NCBI GenBank assembly: GCA_963700285.1
Contig: CAVOXA010000014.1
Location: 96,001 to 160,000 of the forward strand
Reading direction: 5' to 3'
DNA: 64,000 nt
Source: an uncultured Chloroflexia bacterium
Lineage (GTDB): Bacteria; Chloroflexota; Anaerolineae; JAAYZQ01
Part shown: positions 44,287 through 61,147 of the stretch, piece after piece
How positions within the stretch are numbered: the stretch's first letter is position 1
Layout: each line of letters opens with the position of its first letter
The notes under the pieces: generated by a model
The model's database searches: none
Told to the model about the DNA's origin: nothing
Seen by the model: the letters and a program-made list of their open reading frames with translations, nothing else
Translations under genes and position numbers: made by a program

Positions 44287-47200
44287 TCAAGCCACGCGCT
44301 GCAGGTCCAGCAACCGCCTGCTTGTGTCGCGTTCAAGCTGCCGGCCCACGTACAGGTGCTCGCTGACCAGGCGGTCGAAATCATCTTTGGTTAAGGCCAA
44401 TACGCGTGTCGGCGCCAGGGCCGTGACGGTGGCCGTACGAGGAACTTGAAGCAAGAGCGCGATCTCGCCCACGTACTCGCCTGGCCCGCGCTCAGCAGCG
44501 ACGCGCAGCTCGCCATCCTGGCCCACGGATACCTGTACCCGCCCCGACTCGATGACATAGAAGGTCTCCCCCATCTCACCCTGGCGCATGAGGGCTGCGC
44601 CAGGCTCGTAGGTCTGGGCTTGCAGTTGGGCAGCGACGAGCCGGAGCTGTTGGGCGCCCATCTCGGCAAAGAGCGGTACGCGCCTCAGCAGTTCCACCTG
44701 GGTTATGGAGCGATCCACCTTGTCCCGCAGGGCAAAGCGAGCTTTGACCAACTGTTCAAAGTCGCGGCGGCTCAAGGACAGCAACTCTGTGGGTATTGTC
44801 GTCCGGCATGTGGCGTTGCGCGGGGCATCGTGCAGCAGCGCCAGCTCGCCAAAATAGCCCCCTCGGTCCAGTTGGTTCACCACCTCGGAGACTCCTCGTT
44901 CGTCGCGCTGTGTCACCTCGACGTGCCCGTGCCGGACGATGAAGAACCGGTCCCCGCGCTCACCCTGGCGGATGACGGCCCGGCCAGGCCCGTGGTGCTC
45001 TACCCGCAGGCGGGAGCAGACCAGGTCAACCTCGGCACCGTCCATGGTAGCGAAAAGGGGCATGCGCTGCAGCAGGCGCCTGTAATCCTGCTGTACAGTC
45101 TGAAAGTCAGCACTCAGGCTCTCGGCCCGCTTTACCTCGCGGAACAGGTATTGGACTCCGATCTCCCGCTCCTCCCAGGGCAACCCATCGTAGGCCCGCT
45201 GCAGAGACCGCACCGCCAGCTTTTCCCCTACCTCCTCGGCGGTCAGGTCCAGGAGCAGCCCCAGCACGGCAGCATAGATCTCGCCCTGCTCGATGAGGGG
45301 GCGCTCCGAGACTGTGGCCTCCTCGACCTGCCCTGCGACGATGCTCACCGCCCAGCCAGCGGCCAGGGCATAGTTGTTGAAACGCTCCACCAGGTTGCGG
45401 GCAGCCCGGTCGCCGGCAATCTGGCGGAACTGCTCCACGAGGTCGGACACAGTCCAGCCCAGGGCCCTTTGCAGACGGCGCCCGTCGCTCAGGTCAACCA
45501 CGGCCCTGGGTTGGTCGCTCAGGAGGGCGATGGACCTGAAGGCCAGGTGGTGGAGCAAAAGCCCTCCAGCCAGGAGCAGATAGGCAAGCAGCGGAACGCG
45601 GCCGGTGAGCGCCGAGACCGCCATTCCTCCCAGGCTGAAGATCAGCAGCGTCCAGGCCGGACCAAAACTCGTCCGCCAGAAAGAGACCAGGGTAGGCGCC
45701 ATCAGGGCCAGTGTCAGCAGCGGGAGCAGCCAGCCGCTGACGGTCAACAGCGCCCCGGCAACCGTAGGGCTGGCCTGCTGCTGTCGCGCGACCAGCCACA
45801 ACACCAAGCCGTAGCTTCCCGCCAGGCCAAGGACCAGCAGGGCCTTTCCCATCCGGCTCATCTCTTTGAGCTTCGCGCCGGAAAACAGGAGGAGGCCGGC
45901 CACGGCCAGAGCGCCATAGGCCAGGTAGGCCAGACCGATGGCGACAGGTGCGACGAGAATGGGCAGCACAGGCTGCCCTTCTTTCACCGCAATCGCCCCG
46001 GTTCCCACAAGTCCGATCAGCACAAGACTCGGCACAAGAGCCAGGGAAAAGAGCCCTATCAGCCAGAACACAGGCGACAGGCGGGATCCTGCATAGTCGG
46101 AAGCAATGCGCCAGGCGAGAAAGGCGGCAATGCTCAGAGCAGCCACGCCGATAACCGGGGTCAGCGCCCGGTAGGATAAGGCAGCAGGTACCAGGCTGAG
46201 CGCGACTGCGGCAGCCAGGAGCAAGGCAGCCACATTCCAGGGGTTGGCAAAGAGGCCCTTCCGGGCCGCCCAGAGCACAACCTTGCGGACCATGCTTAGC
46301 AGGGCCAGGCCGATGGATAGGACCAGGAGCAGGCTGAGGGCCGCCAACCCCAGGGCAAGCAAGATCCTGCCCACGCCGCCGCCCCGAGTCCACAGGTCGC
46401 GCAGCGCCCCAGCCAGCCGCCGCTGCCAAAAGTAGGCGCCCATCAAGATGGCGTAGGCGGTCCAGGCCGCCGACAACAGGCCAAAGACAGTAAAGATCTT
46501 TTCCTCGCGGGAGAAGGAGGGCAGGACGCCTTTAGGGCTGGCCGAGACTTCGGAAGTCTTGGAGACTTCCGAAGTCTGCTCTTGCCGGACAGCCTTGACC
46601 TTTTCCCACAAACCACCCCGGATAAAGGCCAGCGATTTGCGCCGCAGCATGGGGATGTCGAGCCAGTCCATGAGCAAGTAATAGCCATCCAACTCTAGCA
46701 GGGGATTGAGGTTGAAAAAGACCGTCAGGTAAGACAGAAAGGCGAACTGGAAGAGCAGGGGGTTCAGCGCGAAGGCAGGCCAGAGAAAGAGTACGATACT
46801 GGCCAGGCCTCCCAGGATCAGACCCGAGTAAGGGCCCGCCCAGGTGACGGCCAGGCGAGCCCGTTTGCCCTCCAGCCAGATGTCGGTGGTATCCACGAAA
46901 AAGGCGGGCATGCCAAAATAGATCATAAACCCGCCGCGCCGCACTTCGCGCCCATAGTGCTTGACCGTCAGGGCGTGGGCCATCTCGTGGATGAGGACGG
47001 CGAACAGGTTGGCCACGATCAGGCCCATCATGCCCAGCGCGATAGAACCGGCGATGGTCACCACGCCGTACTGTCCCCCGCGCAGGGCCTGGACAAAGGC
47101 ATAAAAGCCCAGTACCGTTACGAGCAGGTAGAGGATCAGCACCGGTCGGGCGAAGAGCAATCCACCGACCCGCCGATAGACACCACTCAACGCGCGATCC

Positions 47201-47682
47201 AGGCCACCGATGGTGAATTGCCTTTGCAGAAAAGACTGCCAGACCCGGGCCAGACGGTATTGGGGACGGCGTCTCAGCAGGCGGCCCCGCACCCGCTGGT
47301 AGACGTTGACCGGCCGCTCGCTGAGCAGCAGGCCAGCTTTGAGCCCCTCTACCAGGGCGGCCACACGAGCAAAGGCAAAGGAACCATATTCAAGAAAGTA
47401 GGCAACGACCAGGTCCTTGACCGTGCGGCGGCCATCCATCCGCTCCCACAAGAAGTGGTCCCGGTCGCTCAGGCGGTAGTAGGTCTTGGTGGCTGGATTC
47501 TTCAAGACATAGTACACGCCATCGCGCCCTGTCAGGCGGCTGGCTATCACGCCCGGCGCCGCCTGGGGTCGGTATTGGGCCATCTCCAGCTTTTCGTACA
47601 GCCAGGCCTTCAGGCCCAGCCAGCCCTGATCGGGCTGGCTGGTCTCTTGCCGCAGCGTGTCCCAGAGGGAGGTTGCTTCCAT
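44287..47682 (-). CDS. PqqD/RRE-like domain + M50 (site-2) zinc metalloprotease + multi-TM region + two cNMP-binding domains
   Basis: YYVLKNPATKTYYRL..FLWERMDGRRTVKDL; IHEMAH, AGP, NLNPLLELDGYY; FGELALLHDAPRNAT and VGEIALLLQVPRTAT. Confidence 0.88.
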   Translation of the reverse strand: MEATSLWDTLRQETSQPDQGWLGLKAWLYEKLEMAQYRPQAAPGVIASRLTGRDGVYYVLKNPATKTYYRLSDRDHFLWERMDGRRTVKDLVVAYFLEYGSFAFARVAALVEGLKAGLLLSERPVNVYQRVRGRLLRRRPQYRLARVWQSFLQRQFTIGGLDRALSGVYRRVGGLLFARPVLILYLLVTVLGFYAFVQALRGGQYGVVTIAGSIALGMMGLIVANLFAVLIHEMAHALTVKHYGREVRRGGFMIYFGMPAFFVDTTDIWLEGKRARLAVTWAGPYSGLILGGLASIVLFLWPAFALNPLLFQFAFLSYLTVFFNLNPLLELDGYYLLMDWLDIPMLRRKSLAFIRGGLWEKVKAVRQEQTSEVSKTSEVSASPKGVLPSFSREEKIFTVFGLLSAAWTAYAILMGAYFWQRRLAGALRDLWTRGGGVGRILLALGLAALSLLLVLSIGLALLSMVRKVVLWAARKGLFANPWNVAALLLAAAVALSLVPAALSYRALTPVIGVAALSIAAFLAWRIASDYAGSRLSPVFWLIGLFSLALVPSLVLIGLVGTGAIAVKEGQPVLPILVAPVAIGLAYLAYGALAVAGLLLFSGAKLKEMSRMGKALLVLGLAGSYGLVLWLVARQQQASPTVAGALLTVSGWLLPLLTLALMAPTLVSFWRTSFGPAWTLLIFSLGGMAVSALTGRVPLLAYLLLAGGLLLHHLAFRSIALLSDQPRAVVDLSDGRRLQRALGWTVSDLVEQFRQIAGDRAARNLVERFNNYALAAGWAVSIVAGQVEEATVSERPLIEQGEIYAAVLGLLLDLTAEEVGEKLAVRSLQRAYDGLPWEEREIGVQYLFREVKRAESLSADFQTVQQDYRRLLQRMPLFATMDGAEVDLVCSRLRVEHHGPGRAVIRQGERGDRFFIVRHGHVEVTQRDERGVSEVVNQLDRGGYFGELALLHDAPRNATCRTTIPTELLSLSRRDFEQLVKARFALRDKVDRSITQVELLRRVPLFAEMGAQQLRLVAAQLQAQTYEPGAALMRQGEMGETFYVIESGRVQVSVGQDGELRVAAERGPGEYVGEIALLLQVPRTATVTALAPTRVLALTKDDFDRLVSEHLYVGRQLERDTSRRLLDLQRVA
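46545..46577. repeat. In-frame palindromic repeat (TSEVSKTSEV) inside the M50 gene
   Basis: AGACTTCGGAAGTCT-TGG-AGACTTCCGAAGTCT. Confidence 0.8.
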
Positions 47683-47698
47683 AAGATGTCCAAGACAT

Positions 47699-47727
47699 CG
47701 AGCCGTCCGCACAGTGCGGACGGCTCG
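47699..47727. repeat. Perfect inverted repeat between precursor gene 1 and the protease gene
   Basis: CGAGCCGTCCGCAC-A-GTGCGGACGGCTCG. Confidence 0.8.
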
Positions 47728-47794
47728 GTGCGGTTGTCAGACCCCCGATAGGCACTGACAAACCTGGGATTGAGGGGAAGAGATAATGTTAAAT

Positions 47795-48067
47795 CTAGAC
47801 GATCTTGAACTCCGGTCCCACCATAGGACCGGCGTCGACGCTGCCAAAGGCCACCATTCCGGCAAAGTCCATTTTGGAGATGCGCTCGTCCAGAGTACCG
47901 GCCAGCGTCTCCATGGTCTCTGCGTCAAGACTCTTCAGTGCGGCCACCTCCTCGTCCGTCAGCTCAAAGCCCGCCAGCGCCTCCTCGGGGCTGGCAAACA
48001 GAGCCTCGCGAAAGTCTTTCTCCAGTACTGCCTTGCCGATGACAGTTTCCACAGCTTCCTTGGACAT
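47795..48067 (-). CDS. NHLP-clan (Os1348/Franean1_4349-like) RiPP-type precursor peptide 1, 90 aa
   Basis: MSKEAVETVIGKAVLEKDFREALFASPEEALAGFELTDEE..LDERISK + 25-aa tail; AGGAG RBS. Confidence 0.8.
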   Translation of the reverse strand: MSKEAVETVIGKAVLEKDFREALFASPEEALAGFELTDEEVAALKSLDAETMETLAGTLDERISKMDFAGMVAFGSVDAGPMVGPEFKIV

Positions 48068-48128
48068 GGTACACGCTCTCCTTTTCTTGAGTTTGGTCTC
48101 TCGGCCTGATGGGCTCAAATCTGACCTC

Positions 48129-48194
48129 ATTCTACAGCACAACCGGGCTCCTGTCTATGACCGCCTTCACAGGCTGACTGTGACCTGCGTCACA
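48129..48194 (-). promoter_or_regulatory. CRP-dependent (class II) promoter of precursor 1 with tandem CRP boxes
   Basis: TGTGA-CCTGCG-TCACA (48179-48194), TATGA-CCGCCT-TCACA (48156-48171), -10 TAGAAT (48134-48129); proximal box centred at about -41.5. Confidence 0.8.
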
Positions 48195-48201
48195 GTATCG
48201 C

Positions 48202-48822
48202 TCAGCGGCGACAACCAATGTCCGCCAGCAGAACTTCTAGGGCCGCGATGTTCCGCTGCTTTCCCGTCCCGCGAAGGGCCCGCGCTGCCCCGGTAAAGTA
48301 GGTGTGTTCTCGAAGGAACTGGAGTTGGCGGCGATACCAGGCTTCCTTACCCAGCCGCACACCGTGCGCCGCCCACTCGGCACGCAGCGCCTCACTCTGA
48401 ACCAGGCCATCCTCCCGCCCCAGGCTATCGAGGTCAGCATCGGCCAGGATCTCTTCTAGGGACGTAAGGGGTCGCTGCGGCAGCCTGGTGGCCAGGATCA
48501 GCCCCTGGACCACGGACACCTGTTTTGGCGTGAAACCAAAGCAGGGCAGGACCAGGACCACGATCTCGGCGCCGGCCCGTTCGTGGTCGTGGTACTGGAA
48601 CAAGAATCCAATGTCATGATAGGCCGCGGCGATTTCGATGAGCCGGGTCTCATCCTCATCCATGCTGCTGGCCGCCGCCAATCGCAGGGCTGCGGGCAGC
48701 ACGTCATCGTTTGTATGGGAAAAGTTGTGGTAGGTCAGTTCCGGAGCCAGTTCGCTTTGCAGGCGGTCCAGCGCATAGCGCTTGGCAGCCTCAAAATCGG
48801 ACTGGCGGTGAGGGTAGCGCAT
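48202..48822 (-). CDS. HD-domain metal-dependent phosphohydrolase (possible cNMP phosphodiesterase)
   Basis: YHNFSHT, AAAYHDIGF, HE, ILADADL; ATG 48822. Confidence 0.85.
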   Translation of the reverse strand: MRYPHRQSDFEAAKRYALDRLQSELAPELTYHNFSHTNDDVLPAALRLAAASSMDEDETRLIEIAAAYHDIGFLFQYHDHERAGAEIVVLVLPCFGFTPKQVSVVQGLILATRLPQRPLTSLEEILADADLDSLGREDGLVQSEALRAEWAAHGVRLGKEAWYRRQLQFLREHTYFTGAARALRGTGKQRNIAALEVLLADIGCRR

Positions 48823-49157
48823 GGCTTCCCGGCCAGCTCCTGCCCACGGCTCTCCGCTCAGAATCTGCCAGCCGGTCACGGCCTCCGGATCCGTTCCCTG
48901 GATAGCCATTGCGCAGGAATGCAGATCATTGGACGCTCACGCGGCAGCCCTCGCCCTTCGCTGCGCATCGACCGCAGTCCACGCATGGGATCCATGTGCG
49001 CTGGAGGGCGCACTTGGAGGCCCGCCCGAGCTTGGCGCAGGAAAGGCACGGGTCTGTGACCCGGCCTGAGGGAATTCGGACGGGCGAGCCGGTGTCATTA
49101 GCCGGCACAGGTGCCGGGGGAGGGAATGCGGCAGCACATGAGTCCGATGCAGGTCTT

Positions 49158-49448
49158 CTATGTGACCTCAATCAGGGACGCCCTGCCCATGTCACCCGAC
49201 TCGCCGGCCCACAGCCCGTTCCAGCCGTAGCTGAGCACGCCCTGGTAGTCACTCTTGGAAATGCGCTCGTCCAGGATGCCGGCAAACGACGCAATGGCCT
49301 CGGCATCGATGGTCTTCAGAGCGGCTGCTTCCGCCTCGGCCAGGTCGTAGCCGGCCAGTGCCCGGTCGGGATCTATGAAGAGGAGGTCGCGGAACTCGCG
49401 GTCCAGCACTGCCCTGCCGATAACGGCCTCTACGGCTTGCTTTGACAT
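49158..49448 (-). CDS. NHLP-clan RiPP-type precursor peptide 2, 96 aa
   Basis: 39/65 leader residues identical to precursor 1 (hand count), LDERISK + 31-aa tail; AAAGGGG RBS. Confidence 0.8.
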   Translation of the reverse strand: MSKQAVEAVIGRAVLDREFRDLLFIDPDRALAGYDLAEAEAAALKTIDAEAIASFAGILDERISKSDYQGVLSYGWNGLWAGESGDMGRASLIEVT

Positions 49449-50478: not shown

Positions 50479-50874
50479 TCACACCTCCCGCGCGCGCTGC
50501 AAGCGATTGGAATGCTCCTATTCTAACACACAACAGCAGAAAACAAAACCACTACTCTCATTTCCCGTGTCGCCGTGGGTCGAAGGCATCCCGCGGTCAA
50601 TCGCCCACAAAGTCTAGGGACGTCGTCAACAGCGCACAGTGGTCGCACTCAAGCTCCCGGCCTAGGGCCCAGGTCAAGAACACGACAAGCCCTGCCCGAT
50701 ACCCCACTGAATGTTTTCGAGCAGCGTCGCGCTTGAGAGAAGGCGCAGGATCGCCCCGGCGATGGCGACCACCAGGTCCAGGGCTGTGATGGCCTGATTG
50801 GTCGGATAGATGGGGTCGATAGGGGTGCGTCCCGGGGCGTTACGTCACTCGGCTTCGTCGTGTCGCACCTCTTC

Positions 50875-51481
50875 GATTGAGATTCACCTGCTGGTGTATC
50901 CACTCCGGCACCGGATAGCGGTTGAGGTGATGCTTGAGCAGGGTTAAGGGCACGATCAGTGGCACCAGCCCCTGCCGGTAGTCCTCGATGAGGCCCAGGA
51001 GTTCCTGCTTATCTTCGCTGGAGAGGTCATTCTTGAGGTAACCCATCAGGTGCTGGAGCACGTTCACATGCTTGCCCCGCGTGCCCAACACGGCGAGGCC
51101 CTCCATCAATTGAGCGCCGTACTCTGCGGTCAATTCGTCCCAGTCCCGCTTGCCCGCATCGGCGACCAGGCGGCCCATCTCAGTGTAGTGTTTGGGACTA
51201 TGGGCCATCAGCGTCATCTTGTGCGCCGTATGGAACTTGACCAGGCCACCTGGCGTCGGCTCCTCGTCTAGCATTCGAGTCCAGCGATAGTAGGCGAACA
51301 CCCGCTCGACAAAGTTCTCGCGCAGCGGCAGGTCGTTGAGCCGTCCCTCCTCCTCCAATGGCAGCAAGGGGAACCGGTTCATCACCTCTCGGGGGAACAT
51401 GCCCGTGCCGTTGCGCTCGGCCATGCCATGTGGATTGTACACTTTCACGCGAAATAAGCCTGAACTTGGCGAATCCTTCTT
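50875..51481 (-). pseudogene. 3' fragment of the DUF523/DUF1722 (YbgA-like) gene, copy D
   Basis: KKDSPSSGLFRVKVY..KHVNVLQHLMGY..WIHQQVNL; lacks N-terminus and last residues. Confidence 0.85.
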
Positions 51482-51602
51482 ATAAGACTGGACACAAACG
51501 ACAAATCCAGCTGGCCAATGAACTGACTCTGACAACTAGAATCAAGCTCCGGAGGCTCTGCGACTGAGACCTGTTACTACGCGTGGTCGGCTCCAGAGAT
51601 AG

Positions 51603-52676
51603 CTATGCCCCAGACTCAAAAACCTCTGCCGCGCGGCGCATCTTGGCGATGATATCAACATCAAATGGGCAACGCTCGAGGCACACCTCGCATTCGATGC
51701 AGTCCGATCCCGTAGCCGGGAGCGACGCATACCACTCCCGATTCGCCTGCTGGTGAAGCGGCGTAAGTCCGTAGTACTCGACGTAGTTCAGATAGTAGAT
51801 GACGCTAGGAATGGGGATGTCCTGTGGGCAGGGGAGGCAATGTTTGCAGCGCACGCACTGCCCGCGGAGCCAGTACTTGAGATCGTCGTGCAAAGGGGTG
51901 GCCCGTTTCTCCTCCGCGGATGCCGTCAGATAGCTGAGGGCCTGCCGCGTCTGATCGGCATTCCGGGGGCCGGGCACGGCAGCGGCGACTCCCTGTGACA
52001 GGACATAGTGCAAGCACTGGGCCGGCGTGATGCCGGTCGGGGTGCCATCTCTCTGCAACAGCACGCCACCGTAGTAGGGCTTCATGGCGACGACGCCAAC
52101 CCCGTACTCTGCGCAGGTCTCCAGAAGTGCGGCTCGCTCCGGGTCCCCGTGGTGTTGATACAGATTGACCGGGAACATGAGGACATCGATGAGGCCCGAT
52201 TCGATGGCCATGCGGGCCACAGCCGGATTGTGGTTGCTGAGACCGATAAAACCGATCCGCCCGTCGCGTCGGAAGCGATCCAGTCGTTCGATTCCCTGCG
52301 CCGCCCAGTTCTGCCACAACGATTCGGTATCGACCATGGTGAGCATTGCGATCTCAGCGTAGCCGTTTCCCAGGAGGCTGAGTGCCTGATCGAAGCAGCG
52401 CTGGCAGCGGTCAACCGGTTCGTGGTAGATGAACCCCCAGTGTAGGCAGAGCACCAGACTCTCGCGAAATCGGCGAATGGCTGGGCCGATAGCCTCCCAA
52501 TAACCGGCATGGCTTTCCAAGGGGTCGTTGTAGACCAGATCGATGTAGTTCACGCCCGCTGACAGGGCTAGGCCGAGCACTGCATCCATGTTCTCAGAGC
52601 TCTCGATCAGGTGCTCAGTGCCTAGCCCGATCACACCGACCTCGAGTCCTGTCCTACCCAGAGTTCTGGTTTCCAT
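51603..52676 (-). CDS. Aldo/keto reductase with C-terminal 4Fe-4S dicluster domain
   Basis: RTLGRTGLEV..IGLG, IGLSNH, AMKP; CVRCKHCLPC and CIECEVCLERCP. Confidence 0.9.
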   Translation of the reverse strand: METRTLGRTGLEVGVIGLGTEHLIESSENMDAVLGLALSAGVNYIDLVYNDPLESHAGYWEAIGPAIRRFRESLVLCLHWGFIYHEPVDRCQRCFDQALSLLGNGYAEIAMLTMVDTESLWQNWAAQGIERLDRFRRDGRIGFIGLSNHNPAVARMAIESGLIDVLMFPVNLYQHHGDPERAALLETCAEYGVGVVAMKPYYGGVLLQRDGTPTGITPAQCLHYVLSQGVAAAVPGPRNADQTRQALSYLTASAEEKRATPLHDDLKYWLRGQCVRCKHCLPCPQDIPIPSVIYYLNYVEYYGLTPLHQQANREWYASLPATGSDCIECEVCLERCPFDVDIIAKMRRAAEVFESGA

Positions 52677-52939
52677 TCTTATCGCAGATTGCCCCCTATT
52701 CTGCTCGTCCAGCTTTCCTGTCCAATGGTAGACCGTCTAGCAAGTACCGAACAGAACACCTCTGCACAAGCAAACTGACCAGATGACCATGAAGAATCTG
52801 CTTGTAGAAGCACCCGTAGCTGGAAAATTCCAGAGATCCTTCAATGCGTCTCCTGGTGGGACTCTATGACCAATTGACATTGTATCATAGTCTCGCCCCT
52901 TGAGCAAAACCACGTGTGCGGGGACTGGAATGCCACAAC

Positions 52940-53512
52940 TCAGGTGATGCTTCAGCAGCGTCAACGGCACGATCAGCGGCCCAGCCCCTGACGGTAGTCC
53001 TTGATGAGACCCAGGAGCTCCAGCCTACCTTCGGTAGGCCTTGTCATCACTGGAGAGATGGTTCTTTAGTAACCCATCAGGTGCTGGAGCACGTTCACAT
53101 GCTTTCCTCGCGTGCCCAGTACAGCCAGGCCCTCCATCAGCATAGCCCCATACTCGGCTGTCAGTTCGTCCGAGTCCCGCTTGCCCGCGTCAGCGACGAG
53201 GCGGCCCATCTCGGTGTAATGCTTGGGACTATGGGCCATGAGCGTGAGCTTGTGGGCGGTGTGGAACTTGACCAAGCCGCCTGGGGTAGGTTCCTCGTCT
53301 AGCATTCGGGTCCACCGATAGTAGGCAAAGATCCGCTCGATAAAGTTCTCACGCAGGGGCATATCGTTGAGCCGGCCTTCCTCCTCCAAGGGCAGCAGCG
53401 GGAAACGGTTCATGAGCTCGCGGGGGAATATGCCTGTCCCATTTCTCTGCGCCATTCCGTGCTCATTATACACTTTCACACGGAATAAGCCCGAACTTGG
53501 CGAATCCTTCTT
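52940..53512 (-). pseudogene. 3' fragment of the DUF523/DUF1722 gene, copy C (frameshifted, with a palindrome insertion)
   Basis: Same start point as copy D; premature stop at 53066; PLTLLKHHL remnant. Confidence 0.85.
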
Positions 53513-53627
53513 ATAAGACTGGACACAAACGACAAAAAGTCTTCATGCTAACGACCTGCATCCAAGTAATGGGAGAGGCCGAAATAGACTGAACACGTCT
53601 TATAGGTTGAGCAAAACGCAGATGAAA

Positions 53628-53972
53628 CTACATCTGTAGCCCAGATCGCAACAGGTCGATGATTGCCTGGACGATGCTCTGGAGGGTCGCTTGCGAGAGG
53701 TTACCGGCTTCGGATACCATGAGGCTGCTGCTGGCCGTGAACAGCTTGCCAGGACGTGCATAGCTTGTCACCCGAAGGGAGCCTGTATCGAAATCTGCGT
53801 CCGTAAGCTCAACGGCACGCGGGTCTGCGTACGGATTGCTGGTGATCTGGCACAGTATCCAGTCATCCCTGCCAGAGTCAGCCAACACAAGCGCAGGTCG
53901 CAGCTTGGCCTCCGACAGATCCGAGAACGGAAATGGTACAAGCACTATCGAGCCGACTGCAGGTGTGACCAT
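53628..53972 (-). CDS. PemK/MazF family toxin
   Basis: GSIVLVPFPFSDLSEAKLRPALVL, CQITS. Confidence 0.9.
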   Translation of the reverse strand: MVTPAVGSIVLVPFPFSDLSEAKLRPALVLADSGRDDWILCQITSNPYADPRAVELTDADFDTGSLRVTSYARPGKLFTASSSLMVSEAGNLSQATLQSIVQAIIDLLRSGLQM

Positions 53973-54166
53973 GCGGCATCTTCCTCTGACCTGTTCCAGT
54001 CCTTGGCCAGTGCTGCCTCGCTGAGCAAGGCCGTTTCAGACACGCCGCTTAGAGGCGCCTCCTCCAAGATTGTCACAAGTGCACGCCGCACAGCCGGCAA
54101 TCGGACTGATTCAAGCAAGCTCACTTTGCCTTGCTCGTCAATCACAGCTTCGATTGTTTTGACCAT
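53945..54166 (-). CDS. Putative antitoxin upstream of the PemK/MazF toxin
   Basis: 73-aa acidic protein ending LSEAALAKDWNRSEEDAAWSHL, overlapping the toxin start. Confidence 0.75.
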   Translation of the reverse strand: MVKTIEAVIDEQGKVSLLESVRLPAVRRALVTILEEAPLSGVSETALLSEAALAKDWNRSEEDAAWSHLQSAR

Positions 54167-54201
54167 GCCTACCCCTTTCATCGACACTGAACCCTAACCT
54201 G

Positions 54202-54230
54202 ATTATACAACGAATGGCATGGCCGGTCAA
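54202..54230 (-). promoter_or_regulatory. Sigma70 promoter of the TA operon
   Basis: Minus strand TTGACC-17 nt-TATAAT. Confidence 0.7.
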
Positions 54231-54295
54231 CCAACCGAAACAACTTCGCACGCAGGTCAAGGCTCATGTAGACAGTGATGGGTTGATCCATTGGT

Positions 54296-54424
54296 CTACA
54301 CGTGATTGCGCAGCATGAGCTCCTTGGGGTACGGATGCAAGTACGCCTGCTGGTGTACCCAATCGGGAACCTGATAGCGGTCTAGATGATGCTTGAGCAG
54401 CGTCAGCGGCACGATCAGCGGCAG
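54296..54424 (-). pseudogene. Extreme 3' fragment of the DUF1722 gene, copy B
   Basis: LPLIVPLTLLKHHLDRYQVPDWVHQQAYLHPYPKELMLRNHV* (not in ORF track). Confidence 0.85.
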
Positions 54425-54443
54425 GAGGTCCCGCTGACAAGCC

Positions 54444-54725
54444 TCACCCATCTGGGCTCGGAACTCCAGGATACACAGATTGTGGAAGGCTTCTAGCTTC
54501 TGCTGCTGCCTTCTGCAACGCAGCGGCTAGTTGCTCTGCCTGTTCGATGGTCAGCAGGAAGCTCGTCTCATCCGCCTCAAAGAGCCGCATATCCCTCGGC
54601 CCTGACTCATGGATGCGAAACCGGATTTCATCATCCCAACCTTGCTCCCGGTCCGCAGGGTCAAAGTACACTTCGACAGAAATGTTCTCGCCTGCTTGAA
54701 CGATCATGTAGACATCTCGAAACAC
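54444..54725 (-). CDS. Small acidic hypothetical protein
   Basis: 93-aa ORF directly after the DUF1722 stop; no recognisable motif. Confidence 0.55.
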   Translation of the reverse strand: MFRDVYMIVQAGENISVEVYFDPADREQGWDDEIRFRIHESGPRDMRLFEADETSFLLTIEQAEQLAAALQKAAAEARSLPQSVYPGVPSPDG

Positions 54726-54737
54726 CGCACTACCAGT

Positions 54738-55720
54738 TTAAACATGATTCCTAAGCATCAGCTCCTTTGGGTACGGATGGAGGTAGACCTGCTGGTGCAC
54801 CCAGTCAGGCACCGGATGCCGGTTCAGATGATGCTTGAGCAGCGTCAGCGGCACTATCAGTGGCACCATCCCCTGCCGGTAGTCCTCGATGAGGCCCAGG
54901 AGCTCCTTCTTGTCTTCACTCGAGAGGTCCTTCTTGAGATAGCCCATCAGGTGCTGGAGCACGTTGACGTGCTTGCCCCGGGTGCCCATCACACCGAGGC
55001 CCTCCATGAGCATGGCCCCATACTCGGCTGTCAATTCGTCCCAGTTCCGCTTGCCCGCGTCGGCGACGAGGCGGCCCATCTCGGTGTAATGCTTCGGACT
55101 GTGGGCCATCAGCGTCAGCTTGTGCGCGGTGTGGAATTTGACCAGACCACCGGGCGTTGGCTCCTCGTCTAGCATTCGCGTCCAGCGATAGTAGGCAAAG
55201 ACTCGCTCGATAAAGTTCTCGCGCAGCGGCATGTCGTTGAGGCGGCCCTCCTCCTCCAGCGGCAAGAGCGGGAAGCGGTTCATGACCTCGCGGGGAAACA
55301 TGCCCGTGCCATTGTGCTGGGCCATGCCGTGTTCATTATACACTTTTACACGGAACAGACCCGACGAAGGAGAATCCTTTTTGAACACAAAGCCGTGAAG
55401 CTCGGCGGCAGCCAGCTCTTCCACACGATTCTCGTGCCCAGGCGATCATGGCTTCCGTATGGTCAGTGCCGGACTTGGGCGCTATCAGCCGCGGATGCTC
55501 GCTGTCACCCACCAAGCGCAGGCTCTCCCGTGGGATGGGCAGCCCCATCTCTACCTCCGGGCAGACAGGCACCCACTCAACGAATAAGCCCAGCGTGCCG
55601 GTCAGATACCGGTCCAGTTTGTGCCCGCCGTCAAAGCGTACCTTTTCTCCGAGCAGGCAGGTGCTGATTCCAAGACGAATCGTCGGTCCCTCGATGGGCT
55701 TCTGCTCGACGTTTGCCATC
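54738..55720 (-). CDS. DUF523/DUF1722 (YbbK-YbgA-like) protein, full-length copy A, one frameshift near 55430
   Basis: GISTCLLGEKVRFDGGHK, VCPEVEMGLPIPRE, KKDSPSSG, PYPKELMLRNHV. Confidence 0.85.
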
Positions 55721-55770: not shown

Positions 55771-56244
55771 TCAGGGGCTTTCAGGCCGGCTATCAGCAGG
55801 CGTGCCCCACCGCTCTCGGCGACGATAGCGTCGGCGGATGGAGCGAAAGTGGACTCGAATCGGCGCCTCATCCAGCTCTGGATGGGCAGTGAAAAGAGCG
55901 CGATCGCCGTAGCGAAAGGCCTCCAGCACCAAAGGCAACTCACGTTGAAAGATGGCGTACCGCCAACGAGAGGTGCCAAAGACGAGTCCCCCGCTCACGT
56001 GACAGTACACGTGCAACGCAGGGCCGTCGTCGTCTTTGCGCCACTCAGCCAATACCTCGTCACGCATCAGGCGTGTGTACCAACTGCTGATCTGGTCCCG
56101 ATCATAGTCCGGACCGACGGTTAGGTACAGGTCGCCGGTCATGTCGGAATGAGTCAAGGTGTAGCACCGGTGTGCAATCGGGCCTTCCGCCTCCATGCCC
56201 CGGACAAAGCGCACATCCAATTTCTCAGGACGCAAGCGACTCAT
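55771..56244 (-). CDS. Staygreen (SGR) family protein, Mg-dechelatase homolog
   Basis: RCYTLTHSDMTGDLYLTVG, RDEVLAEW, LHVYCHVSGG, IFQRELPLVLEAFRYGD. Confidence 0.9.
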   Translation of the reverse strand: MSRLRPEKLDVRFVRGMEAEGPIAHRCYTLTHSDMTGDLYLTVGPDYDRDQISSWYTRLMRDEVLAEWRKDDDGPALHVYCHVSGGLVFGTSRWRYAIFQRELPLVLEAFRYGDRALFTAHPELDEAPIRVHFRSIRRRYRRRERWGTPADSRPESP

Positions 56245-56268
56245 TTGAGCACTCCCCTGGCCCAGCGA

Positions 56269-57564
56269 TCACGGATGTGCCTGGGCCGGTTCTGGAGTAG
56301 CCGCCGTTTCCTCCCTGCCCGGCAGAGGCGGATCAGGATTGATGATGAGTCGGCGCCAGACATAGATAACGACCCAGGCCATGATGACCGCGCCGACTAC
56401 GCCCGGCGCCCAAGCCCCCAGAGCTCCCAGGAGAAGGCCGCCGGCTGCTGGGCCAATGACTCGCGTTAGACTCTCGACGGACGAGGACACACCCAGGGCG
56501 CCACCCACCTCCTCGGGATAGACCGACTTGGTGATGCTACTGTTGATTACGGTATTTAGCACGCCAGCGGCAAAGGACAACGGAGCCAGGACCAGCAGCA
56601 ACCACAGGAGATTTGGTGCAAATGCCCAGCCCAGGAGCGAGACGGCCAGCACCATCACGGCGCCAAAGATCAAGCGATTCTCGGGAAAGCGTTTTGTCAG
56701 CCGGCCAATCGCCACCCCCTGGACCAACACGCTCAGCAAGCCGACATAGGCCAGGATGTAGCCGGTTCCGATCGAATCAAGCCGGAGCTGGTACTGAGCA
56801 TACAGCGCAAATACCCCCGTAAACGTGGCAAAGGCCAGGCCGTAGAAAAAGCGGATGTTCAGCAACGGGCCAAAGCGCGGTCGCTGCAGTGCATTCACAA
56901 GCTCCCGCACGCTGAGCAATGACTTTGCCGGTTGCTTGGCCAGTTCAGCCTTGATCTCGTCGGTAAGCGACTCTGGCAGCCAGAACAGAACGGCGAACCA
57001 GTTCAGGGTGGCGATGGCAGCCGCTACAAAGGCAGGAACAGCATACCGCCCCCCGGCGCTAAGCGCACCGCCCAACGCCGGACCGATGATGAAGCCCAGA
57101 CCAAAGGCTGCGCCGATGAGGCCCAGCCCGCGAGCTCGACTCTCCTCGTCGGTGACGTCGGTGATGTATGCCTGTGCAACCGAGATATTGCCGCCGGTCA
57201 GACCATCAATGATGCGACTGATGAAAAGAATAATGAGGATGATCGCATTGGTCGTCGCCACCGAACTGTCACCGGCCAGTGCCCTTCCTAGCGGCTCGGC
57301 AAGCCCCAGCAGCAGAAAGCCGGCCACCGTGCCGGCAATGCTGATCAGCAGGATGGGCCGCCGACCGTAACGGTCAGAGAGGCGGCCCAGGACCGGTGCG
57401 CCAATCAACTGCGCTGCCGCATACGAGGCAGCCAAAAGGCCAACGACAAAAGGCGCAGCGCCATAAGCCTCGGCATAATACGGCAGCAGCGGCAAGATTA
57501 AGCCAAAGCCCAACAAGTCAACAAAAACGATGATGAATACAGTAATGAGACGTCTTTTGTCCAT
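56269..57564 (-). CDS. MFS transporter, TetA/DHA1-like
   Basis: DLLGFGLILPLLP, GRLSDRYGRRP, AFGLGFIIGPALGG. Confidence 0.92.
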   Translation of the reverse strand: MDKRRLITVFIIVFVDLLGFGLILPLLPYYAEAYGAAPFVVGLLAASYAAAQLIGAPVLGRLSDRYGRRPILLISIAGTVAGFLLLGLAEPLGRALAGDSSVATTNAIILIILFISRIIDGLTGGNISVAQAYITDVTDEESRARGLGLIGAAFGLGFIIGPALGGALSAGGRYAVPAFVAAAIATLNWFAVLFWLPESLTDEIKAELAKQPAKSLLSVRELVNALQRPRFGPLLNIRFFYGLAFATFTGVFALYAQYQLRLDSIGTGYILAYVGLLSVLVQGVAIGRLTKRFPENRLIFGAVMVLAVSLLGWAFAPNLLWLLLVLAPLSFAAGVLNTVINSSITKSVYPEEVGGALGVSSSVESLTRVIGPAAGGLLLGALGAWAPGVVGAVIMAWVVIYVWRRLIINPDPPLPGREETAATPEPAQAHP

Positions 57565-57591
57565 CCTACTCCTCCCTGTTTGCCCCCTTGT

Positions 57592-59103
57592 TTATCGAGT
57601 CCCAGGCTGCGCCGCCTGCGCAGCCAGGTCTGTAGCCACCTCTGGGGACGACAGGGATTCGGCGCGTTCGGCCAGTCTGCCGATCATGTTACCAAAGATG
57701 GGTCCATGGAACGGGTAAAGACCGTACCAGTACAGGAAGCCGGGCAACCCTTTTGGCGCCAAGAAAGCAGTCTGCACCAACAATGTCTTTCCATCCTCGC
57801 GGGGCCGAGCTTCAAACTGAAGCCAAGCCTGGCCCGGCACCTTCATCTCAGCCCGCAGGCGCATCAGGCGGCCCGGCTCGACGGCTTCTACGCGCCAAAA
57901 GTCCAGGGCATCTCCCACGCGAACTTTTTCGGGATGGCGACGGCCCCGGCGCAAGCCCGGCCCGCCCACGAGCCGGTCGGCGACGCCCCGCAGCCACCAC
58001 AGCCAGTTGGCATACAGCCAGCCCTGCTCACCGCCCAAGCGGCTGAACACGGCAAAGACATCCTCCGGCGGCGCATCCACTACCTGTTGGCGGCGCTCAA
58101 TCTGCAGGCCTTCTTCGGTCGTGAGCTCCACAGGAGCCACGTCTCCGGCACTGGATGCCAACGAGTCGCTCCAACGGGTCTCCACCTGTCCCAACTCCAA
58201 GCTGGCCAAGGCTCGGCGCACAGCCGTGTCATAGCCTACCGGCACGATATCGGGAAAAAGTGTCTGGGCCGCGTCGTCGCGTACGACAACTTCGTTTCGC
58301 AGTCCCTCGATGAGGGGGTATACGATGCCAGCGTTCACCGGCGTCATCCAGTGTACCCAGTGAGCGGAAAGACGGGGCGTCAGCACCGGCACGGGGATGA
58401 GCAGGCGGCGCAGGCCGCGCACCTGCGCGTAGCCCTTCATCATGTCGCCGTAGGTCACTATGTCAGCCCCGCCGACCTCGATGATGCGCCCGGCACTCTC
58501 CGGCACCCTCAAGGCATCGACCAAGTAGTCGAGAATATCTCGGATAGCGATGGGCTGGATGCGAGTGTATACCCAGCGCGGGCTAATCATGACCGGCAGT
58601 CGCTCGGTCAGGTAGCGGATCATCTCGAACGACAGGCTGCCCGAACCGACGATGACGGCCGCGCGGAACTCGGTGACCGGCACGCCCGCCTCGCGCAGCG
58701 CAGCACCCGTCTCCTGGCGAGAGCGCAAGTGTACCGAGAGCTGGCTGTCAGGATCGCCCAGACCGCCCAGGTAGATGATGCGTTCTATGCCAGCAGCCTT
58801 GGCTGCATGCCCAAAGTTGCGAGCGACGACGATGTCGCGTTCACGGTACTCTTTTGTGTCACTCAGACTGTGGATGAGGTAGTAGGTGGCCCATGCGCCT
58901 TGCATAGCGGCGACCAGCGTCTCTGGACGCAGCGCGTCGGCTTCAACCACCTCTACCTGATCGCTCCAGGAACGTCCCTGAAGACGGTTGGCATCGCGCA
59001 CCAGGCAGCGAACCCGGTAGCCCGCATCCAAAAGATGCGGCACCAACCTGCCGCCGATGTAACCTGTGGCACCTGTGACGAGAACGAGCTTTGGCTCCTG
59101 CAT
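57592..59103 (-). CDS. Atypical SDR (NAD(P)-binding) + DUF2867 protein, YbjT-like
   Basis: TGATGYIGG, YYLIHS, HLRSR, GDALDFWRV..LRAEMKVPG.AWL. Confidence 0.88.
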   Translation of the reverse strand: MQEPKLVLVTGATGYIGGRLVPHLLDAGYRVRCLVRDANRLQGRSWSDQVEVVEADALRPETLVAAMQGAWATYYLIHSLSDTKEYRERDIVVARNFGHAAKAAGIERIIYLGGLGDPDSQLSVHLRSRQETGAALREAGVPVTEFRAAVIVGSGSLSFEMIRYLTERLPVMISPRWVYTRIQPIAIRDILDYLVDALRVPESAGRIIEVGGADIVTYGDMMKGYAQVRGLRRLLIPVPVLTPRLSAHWVHWMTPVNAGIVYPLIEGLRNEVVVRDDAAQTLFPDIVPVGYDTAVRRALASLELGQVETRWSDSLASSAGDVAPVELTTEEGLQIERRQQVVDAPPEDVFAVFSRLGGEQGWLYANWLWWLRGVADRLVGGPGLRRGRRHPEKVRVGDALDFWRVEAVEPGRLMRLRAEMKVPGQAWLQFEARPREDGKTLLVQTAFLAPKGLPGFLYWYGLYPFHGPIFGNMIGRLAERAESLSSPEVATDLAAQAAQPGTR

Positions 59104-59170
59104 AACACACCCTTTCGGTAGATCTGGCTGGGAGAACCCGAACCAGAACGATCTCTATTCTACGTCAAGG

Positions 59171-59210
59171 ATTATACCACGTTGAAGGTATTTTGTCAAG
59201 CTTTTGTACA
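59171..59210 (-). promoter_or_regulatory. Consensus sigma70 promoter overlapped by CarH/LitR-like TnnACA repeats
   Basis: Minus strand TGTACA-AAAGC-TTGACA-17 nt-TATAAT (extended TG). Confidence 0.7.
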
Positions 59211-59257
59211 TGTTCCTAATGGGTTTCTAACGCCGAACAGAGGGATACCAGTGTCAG

Positions 59258-59593
59258 CTAGGCACCCGCCGCCCGCCTCCCCATCCAGAAACGTCGCCAG
59301 TCTCCCCCACTGGTCTGGAGCGCAACGAGTGTGTACAGGCTGCCCGCCCAGAAACCCAGAGTCATCATGAGGATGACCCACACAACGGATCGCACGCCGA
59401 TTCCCTCCCGGTAGACGATCCAACCGGAAAACAGGACAAAGCCCACGTACAGATCGACCAGTGACACGATTCCCCAGGGCATGGATAGGAGCTGCTTCCC
59501 TTCTTCGGCAAAGTTGCCGGCAGTGAAGCCATAGATGAGGACGGCCGTCATAGCCAGCAGTCCCAACAGTGCGATACCTTTCGCAGTCTTCAT
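59258..59593 (-). CDS. Small membrane protein (DUF1475-like)
   Basis: PWGIVSLVDLYVGF..WIVYRE, hydrophobic helices. Confidence 0.7.
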   Translation of the reverse strand: MKTAKGIALLGLLAMTAVLIYGFTAGNFAEEGKQLLSMPWGIVSLVDLYVGFVLFSGWIVYREGIGVRSVVWVILMMTLGFWAGSLYTLVALQTSGGDWRRFWMGRRAAGA

Positions 59594-59722
59594 GTGTTTG
59601 TCTCCTTTTGTCTACACACTGGCCGCCAGAGGTCCCGACGACCACCTTCCCTTAGCACCCAGACAAACAGTACGATGACCGAGCCCAGGGAACGCCAGAT
59701 GTAGACGTCCTGGGCCAGCCCG

Positions 59723-61147
59723 TCATATTCCAGTCTCTCTAGCCAAGCGATAAGCGCTTAGCGTCCGCTGCCGCGCCCAGGCATGGTCGATGATCGGCGC
59801 CGGGTAGCCCTGGCCCAGGACGAACCCGGCCTCACGCTGTACATCACCGGGCATCTCCCACGGCGCGTGGAGGTATCTGTCCGGCACGCGGGCCAGCTCA
59901 GGCAGCCAGCGCCGCACAAAGACACCGTCCGGATCGTGTTTTCTGCCCTGAAGTATTGGGTTAAAGATGCGAAAGTAAGGCGCAGCGTCAGTGCCGGTGC
60001 CGGCCGTCCACTGCCAGCCGCCGTTGTTGGCCGCCGGATCGCCATCTACCAGGTGCTGCATGAAGAACCGCTCACCCCACCGCCAGTCGATGAGCAGGTC
60101 TTTGACCAGGAACGATGCGACGATCATCCGTGCCCGGTTGTGCATCCAGCCGGTCTCGACCAGTTGGCGCATGGCCGCGTCGACCACGGGATAGCCGGTC
60201 CGGCCCTCGCACCAGGCGGCGAAAGCACCCGCATCGTTCTCCCAGGCGATCTGGTCGTATACAGGGCGAAAGCTCGATCCGGATACATGGGGAAAGTGGT
60301 GGACGATGTTGATGTAGAACTCGCGCCAGACCAACTCGTTGAGCCAAACCTCGACGCCTTTGCGCTCCTCAGCGCTGGACGCCGCGCCGGCAGCAGCCAG
60401 GGCGCGGGTCACCGCCTGCCGCGCTGAAACCATACCAAATCGCAGGTAGGGCGAAAGTTTTGACGTGCCGTCCTGATCCAATCGATCGCGGCCCTCTGAA
60501 TAGCAGTAGATAGGCGCGGCGTCGAGATCGACAAACGAGTCTAGGCGGCGCCGGGCCTCGGCCTCCCCGGGTGGGAAGGGTACCTTGGAGGGCAGAGTCG
60601 GGGAATCGGGAATCGGCAAGGCCGGCACATCCGGCACTGCAGGCAGCGACGCCGGGGCAGCCAGCAAGAGTCGCTCGTACGGCGGGGCTAGGGCCTTCCA
60701 GGCACGGCCAAAGGGCGTAAAGACGGTATAGGGCGCACCGGCGGCGTTGAGAACCACTCCGGGCGGGTGCACAGTCACGCCCGCGGTCAGGTGGAGCGGA
60801 AGCACCTCGGCGACGCGGGCATCACGCCCTCGGGCGTACGGCGTATGGTCCTCTTCGGCAAAGATGCCGGCCGCACCGGTCTCACCCACCAGTGTCCTCA
60901 GTTCGGCCAGCGGCTCGCCGCGCCGGACCACCAGGCGGCTGCCCCGCGCACGCAGGTCTGAGTCGAGTTGGCGCAGCCCGCCAAGCAGGAACGCCACCCG
61001 CTTCTCGCCGGCGCACGGCGAATTGAGTAGCGCCGGGTCGAGTACAAAGACCGGGATGACCTTTTCGGCGAGGGCCAAGGAGGCGGCAAGAGCTTGGTTG
61101 TCTGCCAGGCGGAGATCGCGGCGGGTCCACCAGATGGCTGTGGTCAT
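59723..61147 (-). CDS. phrB: Deoxyribodipyrimidine (class I CPD) photolyase
   Basis: [46 protein letters not shown]. Confidence 0.95.

Follow-up and report, generated by a model that had tools for sequence, protein, structure and literature searches.

At icd, the integrated element e14 restores the gene that it splits, and the displaced fragment of the gene marks the far end of the element. The same arrangement is described for islands in tDNA genes in the Islander report (PMC4383910), and tandem accretion at att sites is described for SXT tandems (PMC5812530). The locus we investigated lies in a 64,000-nucleotide stretch (hereafter the window) from an uncultured Chloroflexia bacterium (GTDB lineage Chloroflexota, Anaerolineae, JAAYZQ01; assembly GCA_963700285.1, contig CAVOXA010000014.1, positions 96,001 to 160,000). 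There, a ybgA-like DUF523/DUF1722 gene is followed on the minus strand by an array of copies of its own 3' part, separated by different cargo genes. The array is real and is part of a family-wide system in Anaerolineae. It works like the tandem arrays that accrete at att sites: the target gene is restored, a displaced fragment stands at the far end, the crossover is fixed and an arm is conserved. What is lacking, among the loci scanned, is a cognate integrase, whether carried by the module itself or by one beside it in the tandem. The system is apparently an undescribed variant of such arrays; the literature searched holds no description of ybgA/DUF1722 arrays, with the limits that subscription papers lay mostly outside its coverage and that supplementary tables of target genes might list ybgA.

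Several described systems share some of these features. Streptococcal cis-mobilizable elements (CIMEs) and microCIMEs, as PMC7563491 describes them, are integrase-less, keep their att sites and stand in tandem at the target gene; they are decayed integrative and conjugative or integrative and mobilizable elements (ICEs, IMEs) beside an intact ICE or IME at gene 3' ends, in arrays of two to three (PMC7563491). The ybgA arrays are similar in that integrase-less modules are stacked at a target gene, whereas their crossover lies a third into the gene, 645 bp are replaced, up to 8 sites occur, the modules are reshuffled and no ICE or IME parent was found (general family scans of 180 open reading frames (ORFs) returned no conjugation, relaxase, ICE or IME family). 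The ssrA islands of Dehalococcoides, another Chloroflexota host, also form tandems bounded by repeats of the target; according to PMC3146451 the target is the tmRNA gene, the repeat is 20 bp long, and 16 islands carry a module with the serine integrase DsiB, while 15 are without an integration module. Unlike these, the ybgA arrays have a protein-coding target and a 645-bp repeat, and no such module was found in them. Tandems in the Islander description require an integrase in each member (PMC4383910), and none is present in the ybgA arrays. Integrons and clusters of attC sites lacking integrases (CALINs), as portrayed in PMC8618304, resemble the ybgA arrays in their co-oriented, mostly single-gene, reshuffled cargo rich in toxin-antitoxin genes, in leaders with predicted promoters and, for some of the cargo, in attC-like halves; the ybgA arrays differ in having no adjacent intI, no G|TT crossover and a repeat unit that is a piece of a protein-coding gene.

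The four long fragments in the genome of the window (G000 in our numbering, with C for contigs and L for loci), namely C and D in the window and E and F elsewhere in the genome, all begin at nt 339 of the gene, at the codons KKDS. They are preceded by a non-coding 24-mer that is not part of the gene, TTTGTCGTTTGTGTCCAGTCTTAT, with no mismatches ahead of C and D, two ahead of E and eight ahead of F. When up to 5 mismatches are allowed, a scan of the whole genome finds four sites, every one at a ybgA fragment. Among loci fetched by protein match alone, the 24-mer (0-8 mismatches) stands at 11 of the 15 KKDS starts outside full genes, and a twelfth, with two mismatches, qualifies after an off-by-one frame correction; of the other three, one shows the end of an insertion sequence (IS) where the motif would be, one retains gene-like bases and the third is a distant homologue. 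None of 12 full genes carries the motif (15-19 mismatches). The arm formed by the 24-mer is 90% identical between arm families, a value partly inflated by selection through the search pattern, against 41-43% for the adjoining 36 bp and 28% farther out. At synonymous sites, identity among the fragments is only about 51% (pS 0.49). The far stronger conservation of the 24-mer indicates that the motif is under constraint. A coding or promoter role of the 24-mer was rejected, as there are variants with an in-frame TGA and third positions are conserved. Rfam gave no match for the site.

The same arrangement recurs in relatives and in sediment metagenomes. By protein search, 26 of 81 genomes have ybgA-like matches, frequently in the form of multiple fragments that share their start residue. 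The 24-mer motif is present in 8 of the 23 genomes of the order (none with the reversed pattern as control) and in 6 of the 401 genomes sampled from the class; two of these six lie outside the family, in orders where 1 of 14 and 1 of 11 genomes have it. Metagenomes contributed 81 stretches with the motif. At the 121 distinct motif sites analysed, counted like all pairs below after removal of overlapping duplicate loci, the sequence 3' of the motif takes the long form (nt 339 to the stop codon) in 73 and a short form that jumps from nt 352 to 897 in 35, including a promoter-bearing variant. A second short form accounts for six, interruption by an IS or a miniature inverted-repeat transposable element (MITE) for two, and other forms for five; the classifier mislabels a few sites, for example L094:381. 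Within any locus all sites are co-oriented (as many as 8 on a single 22-kb contig, with 7 for the related genome G001), and the 45 intervals from junction to junction range from 183 to 13,717 bp (median 1,965 bp). The cargo is varied and includes hydrolases, methyltransferases, transporters and the toxin-antitoxin genes PIN, HepT, HicB, ParE and Phd. Families of leader sequences recur after the stop codon, one of them with a sigma70-like promoter, and consensus-like promoters are predicted in leaders. In 7 of 8 sequencing runs the 3' half and the 24-mer gather far more contigs than the 5' half does; depth summed over contigs does not give a copy number, and the joints in these contigs belong to other organisms, and we do not use it as evidence.

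The two sides of the junction are combined in different ways in different loci. In a linkage test on the 99 sites with enough flanking sequence, all 20 pairs whose upstream 300 bp match at 90% or more carry a different downstream piece; these pairs stem from four cassette families and amount to four independent cases. Their identity falls within the first 8-60 bp past the junction, as between L088:4080 and L119:625, which are 99.7% identical upstream and 67% identical at +8 to +60. Seen from the other side, the two pairs with at least 95% identity downstream are flanked upstream by unrelated DNA, and the comparison of G001 with L118 shows the same. One cassette with a DUF5661 gene is followed by the long, S1, S1p or S2 form, which have only the arm and 3-14 nt in common, and a 97%-identical cargo is the first one after the intact gene in G022 and the final one of a different array. 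A 5.9-kb block starting with the motif is common to the genome of the window and G001, and upstream of the motif their DNA is unrelated. Near-identical cargo is thus joined to different fragments exactly at the 24-mer, and this locates a fixed crossover at the mark. In the gene of the window the crossover would be located at or just after position 55382. The original prediction had read the array as the product of repeated integration with a replacement 3' end, and the fixed breakpoint, conserved arm, varied cargo and reassortment at the junction all support that reading; the contrary outcome that it had named, a fixed arrangement in relatives with unvarying cargo, did not occur.

We consider it probable, judging from these sequence comparisons, that tandem integrase-less modules behind the ybgA-like gene are inserted and reshuffled at the junction of arm and KKDS by a tyrosine recombinase acting in trans. 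A module would comprise a spare copy of the last 645 bp of the gene (or a shortened one), a leader, a cargo of one to a few genes and the 24-bp arm. An excised circle (arm|3' half-leader-cargo) would recombine with the KKDS site of the gene, which would be restored with the 3' half of the circle, and the old half and the older modules would be displaced downstream. Recombination between two junctions would delete or move modules. Part of the cargo may have entered in the form of integron cassettes, and RecA may cause extra shuffling by recombining the long copies. Candidates for the enzyme would be a Xer-like protein of the host or a helper element yet to be sampled.

The enzyme would be of the tyrosine type, because the site forms an imperfect dyad with a 6-bp spacer and because identity is needed only to the right of the junction. 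The motif and the bases past the junction read TGTGTCCAGTCTT-ATAAGA-AGGACTGACCACA (10/13 in the short form). Xer/dif modules (pdif) are recombinase-free, have dyad sites with a 6-bp spacer and are served by a host enzyme in trans, and IS1202 reportedly targets Xer sites. Recombinase-free modules, the dyad with its 6-bp spacer and the insertion of an IS at the site are likenesses to the ybgA arrays. The 24-mer has no resemblance to the dif predicted for Dehalococcoides in PMC3025954; a dif of the host was not found in the genome with the pattern searched. An IS or MITE is inserted at the 6-bp spacer in four loci, with both ends and a 6-bp duplication visible in L088. The family has the terminal repeats CTGGACTTTGGCCA (L088:2035-2187, L060:4273, L014/L041:120 and L118:1501-1654) and a DDE_5 remnant in L060. 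The joins with 'AAGACTGGAC', considered as inversions, were rejected as such, being IS/MITE insertions. A further observation concerns the 24-mer itself, which contains TTTGTGTCC, a near-copy of the gene's TTTGTGTTC, 8 bp farther from AAGAAGGA (window 55375-55397 compared with 53505-53536); possibly this is an ancient footprint or a mimic.

If the halves take turns in completing the gene, then purifying selection on the spare halves is expected. The ratio dN/dS is 0.045-0.074 among the full gene (copy A) and fragments C and D; 24 of the 73 long fragments are complete enough for analysis, and the 15 of these that were used, all intact, have a median of 0.085. Of the differences counted in 64 fragments over the 19 codons ahead of the first in-frame Met, 366 are synonymous and 70 non-synonymous. 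These values indicate that the spare halves are under purifying selection and have worked as genes, and selection on codons before the first Met is in keeping with translation that starts in the 5' half of the gene itself. One could assume instead that the long fragments are expressed as stand-alone DUF1722 genes and that the 24-mer is a regulatory site: most complete long fragments have an open frame under purifying selection, and a DUF1722-only family of about 169 aa (NF007549) exists. However, the same selection is seen ahead of the first in-frame Met, the 24-mer is kept before short non-coding forms, some copies of the motif have an in-frame TGA, and reassortment at the junction would go unexplained; we regard this alternative as hardly credible. 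A 16-nt frame-shifting palindromic insert (window 53025-53045; L001:13550 region) is common to C, E and fragments of other genomes, and therefore non-functional halves appear to spread too.

The proposal of a recombinase acting in trans has to be weighed against a number of observations that speak against it. With z values of -0.2 to -1.0, the long form of the site shows no significant hairpin, and the left half-site on the gene side matches the dyad poorly. The genes of G000 and G001 show no sharp step in identity between 5' and 3' parts at the junction (89% vs 86%). Leaders shared by modules that follow unrelated 3' ends hint that the stop codon may be another breakpoint, which the proposal does not explain: in 9 pairs that share a leader, the preceding 80 bp are 59% to 96% identical (median 82%, background about 80%). 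Near-identical leaders behind unrelated ybgA 3' ends are seen at window 54296 and L129:83, and at L064:1963 and L104:513. No excised circle or empty site was observed in the contigs, to which the search was confined (none of the runs contains this strain, the best share being 0.23). Most of the unlinked pairs come from short metagenome contigs, in which mis-joins at a 32-bp repeat are possible. Taken further, this last point would turn the shuffling into an artefact arising where assembly meets a short conserved repeat, and would leave the arrays as static, decayed duplicates; that most loci are short metagenome contigs, and that the assemblies of the window and of G001 contain frameshifts, would agree with it. 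This account is nevertheless very improbable: it has to contend with the 5.9-kb block shared from the 24-mer onwards, with unrelated upstream DNA, by two contiguous assemblies (22 contigs in G000, about 20 in G001), with the divergence of the copies (82-84% identity, exact runs of at most 36 bp) and with the clustering of fragments across genomes.

In a tree of 45 3' halves, the analysis that the original prediction had recommended for the copies, the five copies from the genome of the window do not form a clade. Fragment D groups with metagenome fragment L129 (99/92) and not with copy A, and E groups with fragments of other genomes (100/99). Also to be counted against the proposal, gene and fragment group by genome in G374 and G021, where they share identical tracts (100% over nt 180-540 in G374, the first 60 nt in G021); therefore homologous recombination or conversion also acts. 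These tracts, the grouping by genome and the failure to find a recombinase would be accounted for if accretion were due to RecA only, with the 645-bp copies as homology arms through which circles loop out and re-integrate, and the 24-mer as the inherited edge of an old duplication or as a nicking site for the start of transfer. We find this unlikely, as it conflicts with the loss of linkage within the first 8-60 bp past the junction even in pairs of two long forms, with the reassortment with many arms of short forms that have just 27-38 bp in common, and with an arm far more conserved than synonymous sites.

The search for an enzyme completes the evidence against the trans-acting recombinase. 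The genome of the window has no serine recombinase or Y2 transposase (no match to PF07508, PF00239 or PF04986) and no intI, TIGR02249 being among the models searched, and its 7 matches to PF00589 are all on contigs other than that of the array, which agrees with the earlier statement that the window contains no recombinase. None was found inside any array of the 23 genomes, nor by Pfam among 150 of 155 representatives of metagenome ORFs (at least 110 aa) and 30 genome ORFs; integrases adjoining DUF1722 3' fragments, which had been anticipated, were thus absent from these arrays and locus ORFs. Searches of the loci with tblastn and motif scans yielded no recombinase, with the caveat that many loci are short and a large parent element could be missed. 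The motif was absent from the viral contigs and plasmids searched, and protein searches of phage, plasmid and viral collections returned only distant ybgA homologues with less than 60% identity. With regard to capture by IS91/ISCR elements, no Y2 transposase adjoins the fixed end: PF04986 is present in 1 of 5 array-bearing genomes and never on the array contig. The sole recombinase gene nearby, a xerD 6 kb upstream of the array in G374, was rejected as the cognate enzyme, being the housekeeping xerD-PNP locus. XerD is also present in the genome of the window. Among Xer-like genes of the host, one on C7 occurs in 10 of 22 genomes of the family and 14 of 58 others, and one next to rpoC in 18 of 22 and 3 of 58, including genomes without arrays; the rpoC-adjacent gene apparently has no catalytic residues, judged by a motif. 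Neither is supported as a candidate, and they are leads at most. Two Xer-like genes of G000, at C10:1211588-1212532 (L255) and C10:222173-223150 (L256), the rpoC-adjacent one among them, apparently miss catalytic residues.

Parts of integrons were also found. IntI matches occur in 5 of the 23 genomes of the order, four of them over the cut-off and none near an array, and in L072/L095 the motif is joined to a 5' remnant of intI that includes the intI promoter. Two adjoining full-length intI genes lie at L261:14180-16114 (G017:C73), and scattered remnants of intI 5' ends or promoters, with no full intI, are seen in G000 at C15:38000, C6:27300, C4:58400 and C10:1612200. Halves resembling attC were detected upstream of 22 of 106 sites, compared with 193 of 3000 windows drawn at random and, on the opposite strand, 4 of 106 sites, an enrichment that is partly circular as the patterns were tuned on part of the same data. 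These matches and remnants, together with the promoter-bearing leaders, would be expected if the whole process were due to an IntI encoded elsewhere, with the junction in ybgA or the stop codon serving as secondary attI, the arrays then being unusual CALINs. However, a G|TT box is absent from both strands of the mapped crossover block (TCTTAT|AAGAAGG), a strict scan for attC hairpins was passed by only 1 of 109 sites, no attC was found in the cargo of the window, and intI is missing from the genome of the window and from the surroundings of every array, which makes action by IntI highly unlikely. Integron parts are nested in some of the cargo and are not central to the system. The description of the array as integron-like in the original prediction is apt for its behaviour, with co-oriented, shuffled small cassettes, and fails for membership: with no intI in the genome or beside the arrays and no attC crossover, we do not file it as an integron.

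Within the window, the gene, the hypothetical protein gene, fragments B to D, the putative antitoxin gene, the toxin gene and the reductase gene lie on the minus strand where they had been placed before (Table 1). The gene called full in the original prediction is present, and its ORF is split in two by a single extra base at 55432 (a +1 frameshift) that is absent from the contigs of relatives; the base may be a sequencing error or a real lesion. We take its DUF523 domain to be 2-thiouracil desulfurase-like. The fragment copies are 82-84% identical to copy A with longest exact common runs of 32-36 bp, therefore the array is no collapsed repeat, as had been argued earlier; the assembly comprises 22 contigs and is 89% complete. 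The toxin is identified as PemK by its domain, and the antitoxin owes its name to context, with zero Pfam or NCBIfam matches. The toxin-antitoxin module and its arm recur in L129 (94% identity), ahead of a D-like fragment, and in L084 (90% identity), ahead of a short form. The hypothetical gene of the first cargo is also found 3' of ybgA 3' ends in L044, L084/L108 and L130. Fragment B is likely a decayed remnant. Fragment C is broken by a 1-nt deletion and the 16-nt insert, and its last 86 nt are gone. The leader family behind it occurs in 17 of 119 flanks of 3' ends. The gene remnant at the distal end likely marks a deletion that shortened the array. The 24-mer, the common start of C and D, the frameshift and a second cluster of fragments were absent from the earlier account.

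Table 1. Coordinates of the target gene, its fragments and the cargo in the window.
Feature	Position	Strand	Remarks
Copy A, ybgA-like DUF523/DUF1722 target gene	ATG 55719 to stop 54738	-	Pfam PF04463 + PF08349
Inferred attB, ...GGCTTTGTGTTC|AAAAAGGA (codons GFVF|KKD)	55375..55397	-	Start point of all long fragments
Cargo 1, hypothetical protein, ~87 aa	54444..54707	-	No family match
Fragment B	54296..54423	-	Final 128 nt of the gene, without 24-mer
Putative antitoxin	53945..54166	-	ORF upstream of the PemK gene and overlapping it
PemK/MazF-like toxin	53628..53972	-	PF02452
Conserved 24-mer (att-like arm) ahead of fragment C	53513..53536	-	
Fragment C	52940..53512	-	Gene nt 339-897
Shared leader	52750..52939	-	Predicted sigma70-like promoter toward the cargo: TTGCTC 52907-52902, 17 nt, TACAAT 52884-52879
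Cargo, aldo/keto reductase with 4Fe-4S dicluster domain	51603..52676	-	PF00248, PF13187
Upstream arm	51506..51571	-	Commonest family (arm1, 27/126 arms)
Conserved 24-mer ahead of fragment D	51482..51505	-	
Fragment D	50875..51481	-	Gene nt 339-945, open frame, last 38 nt gone
195-bp gene remnant	50639..50833	-	77% identical to the intact gene in the second cluster (C14:691.3-691.5 kb)

The second ybgA cluster lies on the same contig at C14:654-704 kb, about 550 kb from the array of the window, and holds fragments E and F. At C14:668 kb, and also in G001, the 5' half of the gene is fused to a short form; these fusions could be the outcome of the same insertion event, which would disable that copy of the gene. 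The region C14:654000-726000 (L001-L003, L136) contains duplicated blocks with a photolyase, a 2Fe-2S oxidoreductase and a repeated secreted-protein gene, and these blocks are contiguous with the main array in G001:C19. Next to the array of the window, the neighbourhood of the target gene (55771-61147) encodes Staygreen, MFS, DUF2867 and photolyase proteins. On its other side, at 44287-49448, two Frankia_peptide (PF14407) precursors lie beside an HD-domain gene and the gene for a 1141-aa membrane protein, by eye peptidase-like with cNMP-binding domains; the region is likely a locus for ribosomally synthesized and post-translationally modified peptides (RiPP-type).

The ybgA arrays would represent a cassette-shuffling platform in abundant sediment bacteria that integron finders and integrase-anchored island finders miss alike. 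The 24-mer together with AAGAAGG offers an exact candidate att site for a recombinase that would tolerate cargo of 0.2-14 kb. The arrangement implies that the C-terminal two-thirds of the target protein would be swapped with each insertion, and that modules with a shortened half may switch the gene off. A bolder interpretation, to which we give only tentative and limited credence, is that one family of Anaerolineae possesses a host-run capture system analogous to integrons, with entry in the middle of a gene, the spare two-thirds of that gene as the recombination unit of each cassette, a chromosomal Xer-like enzyme in place of a mobile element to insert and reshuffle the cassettes, and true integron cassettes nested as a second layer. 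If it is true that a Xer-like enzyme of the host runs the arrays, then the integron idea would have been invented here independently.

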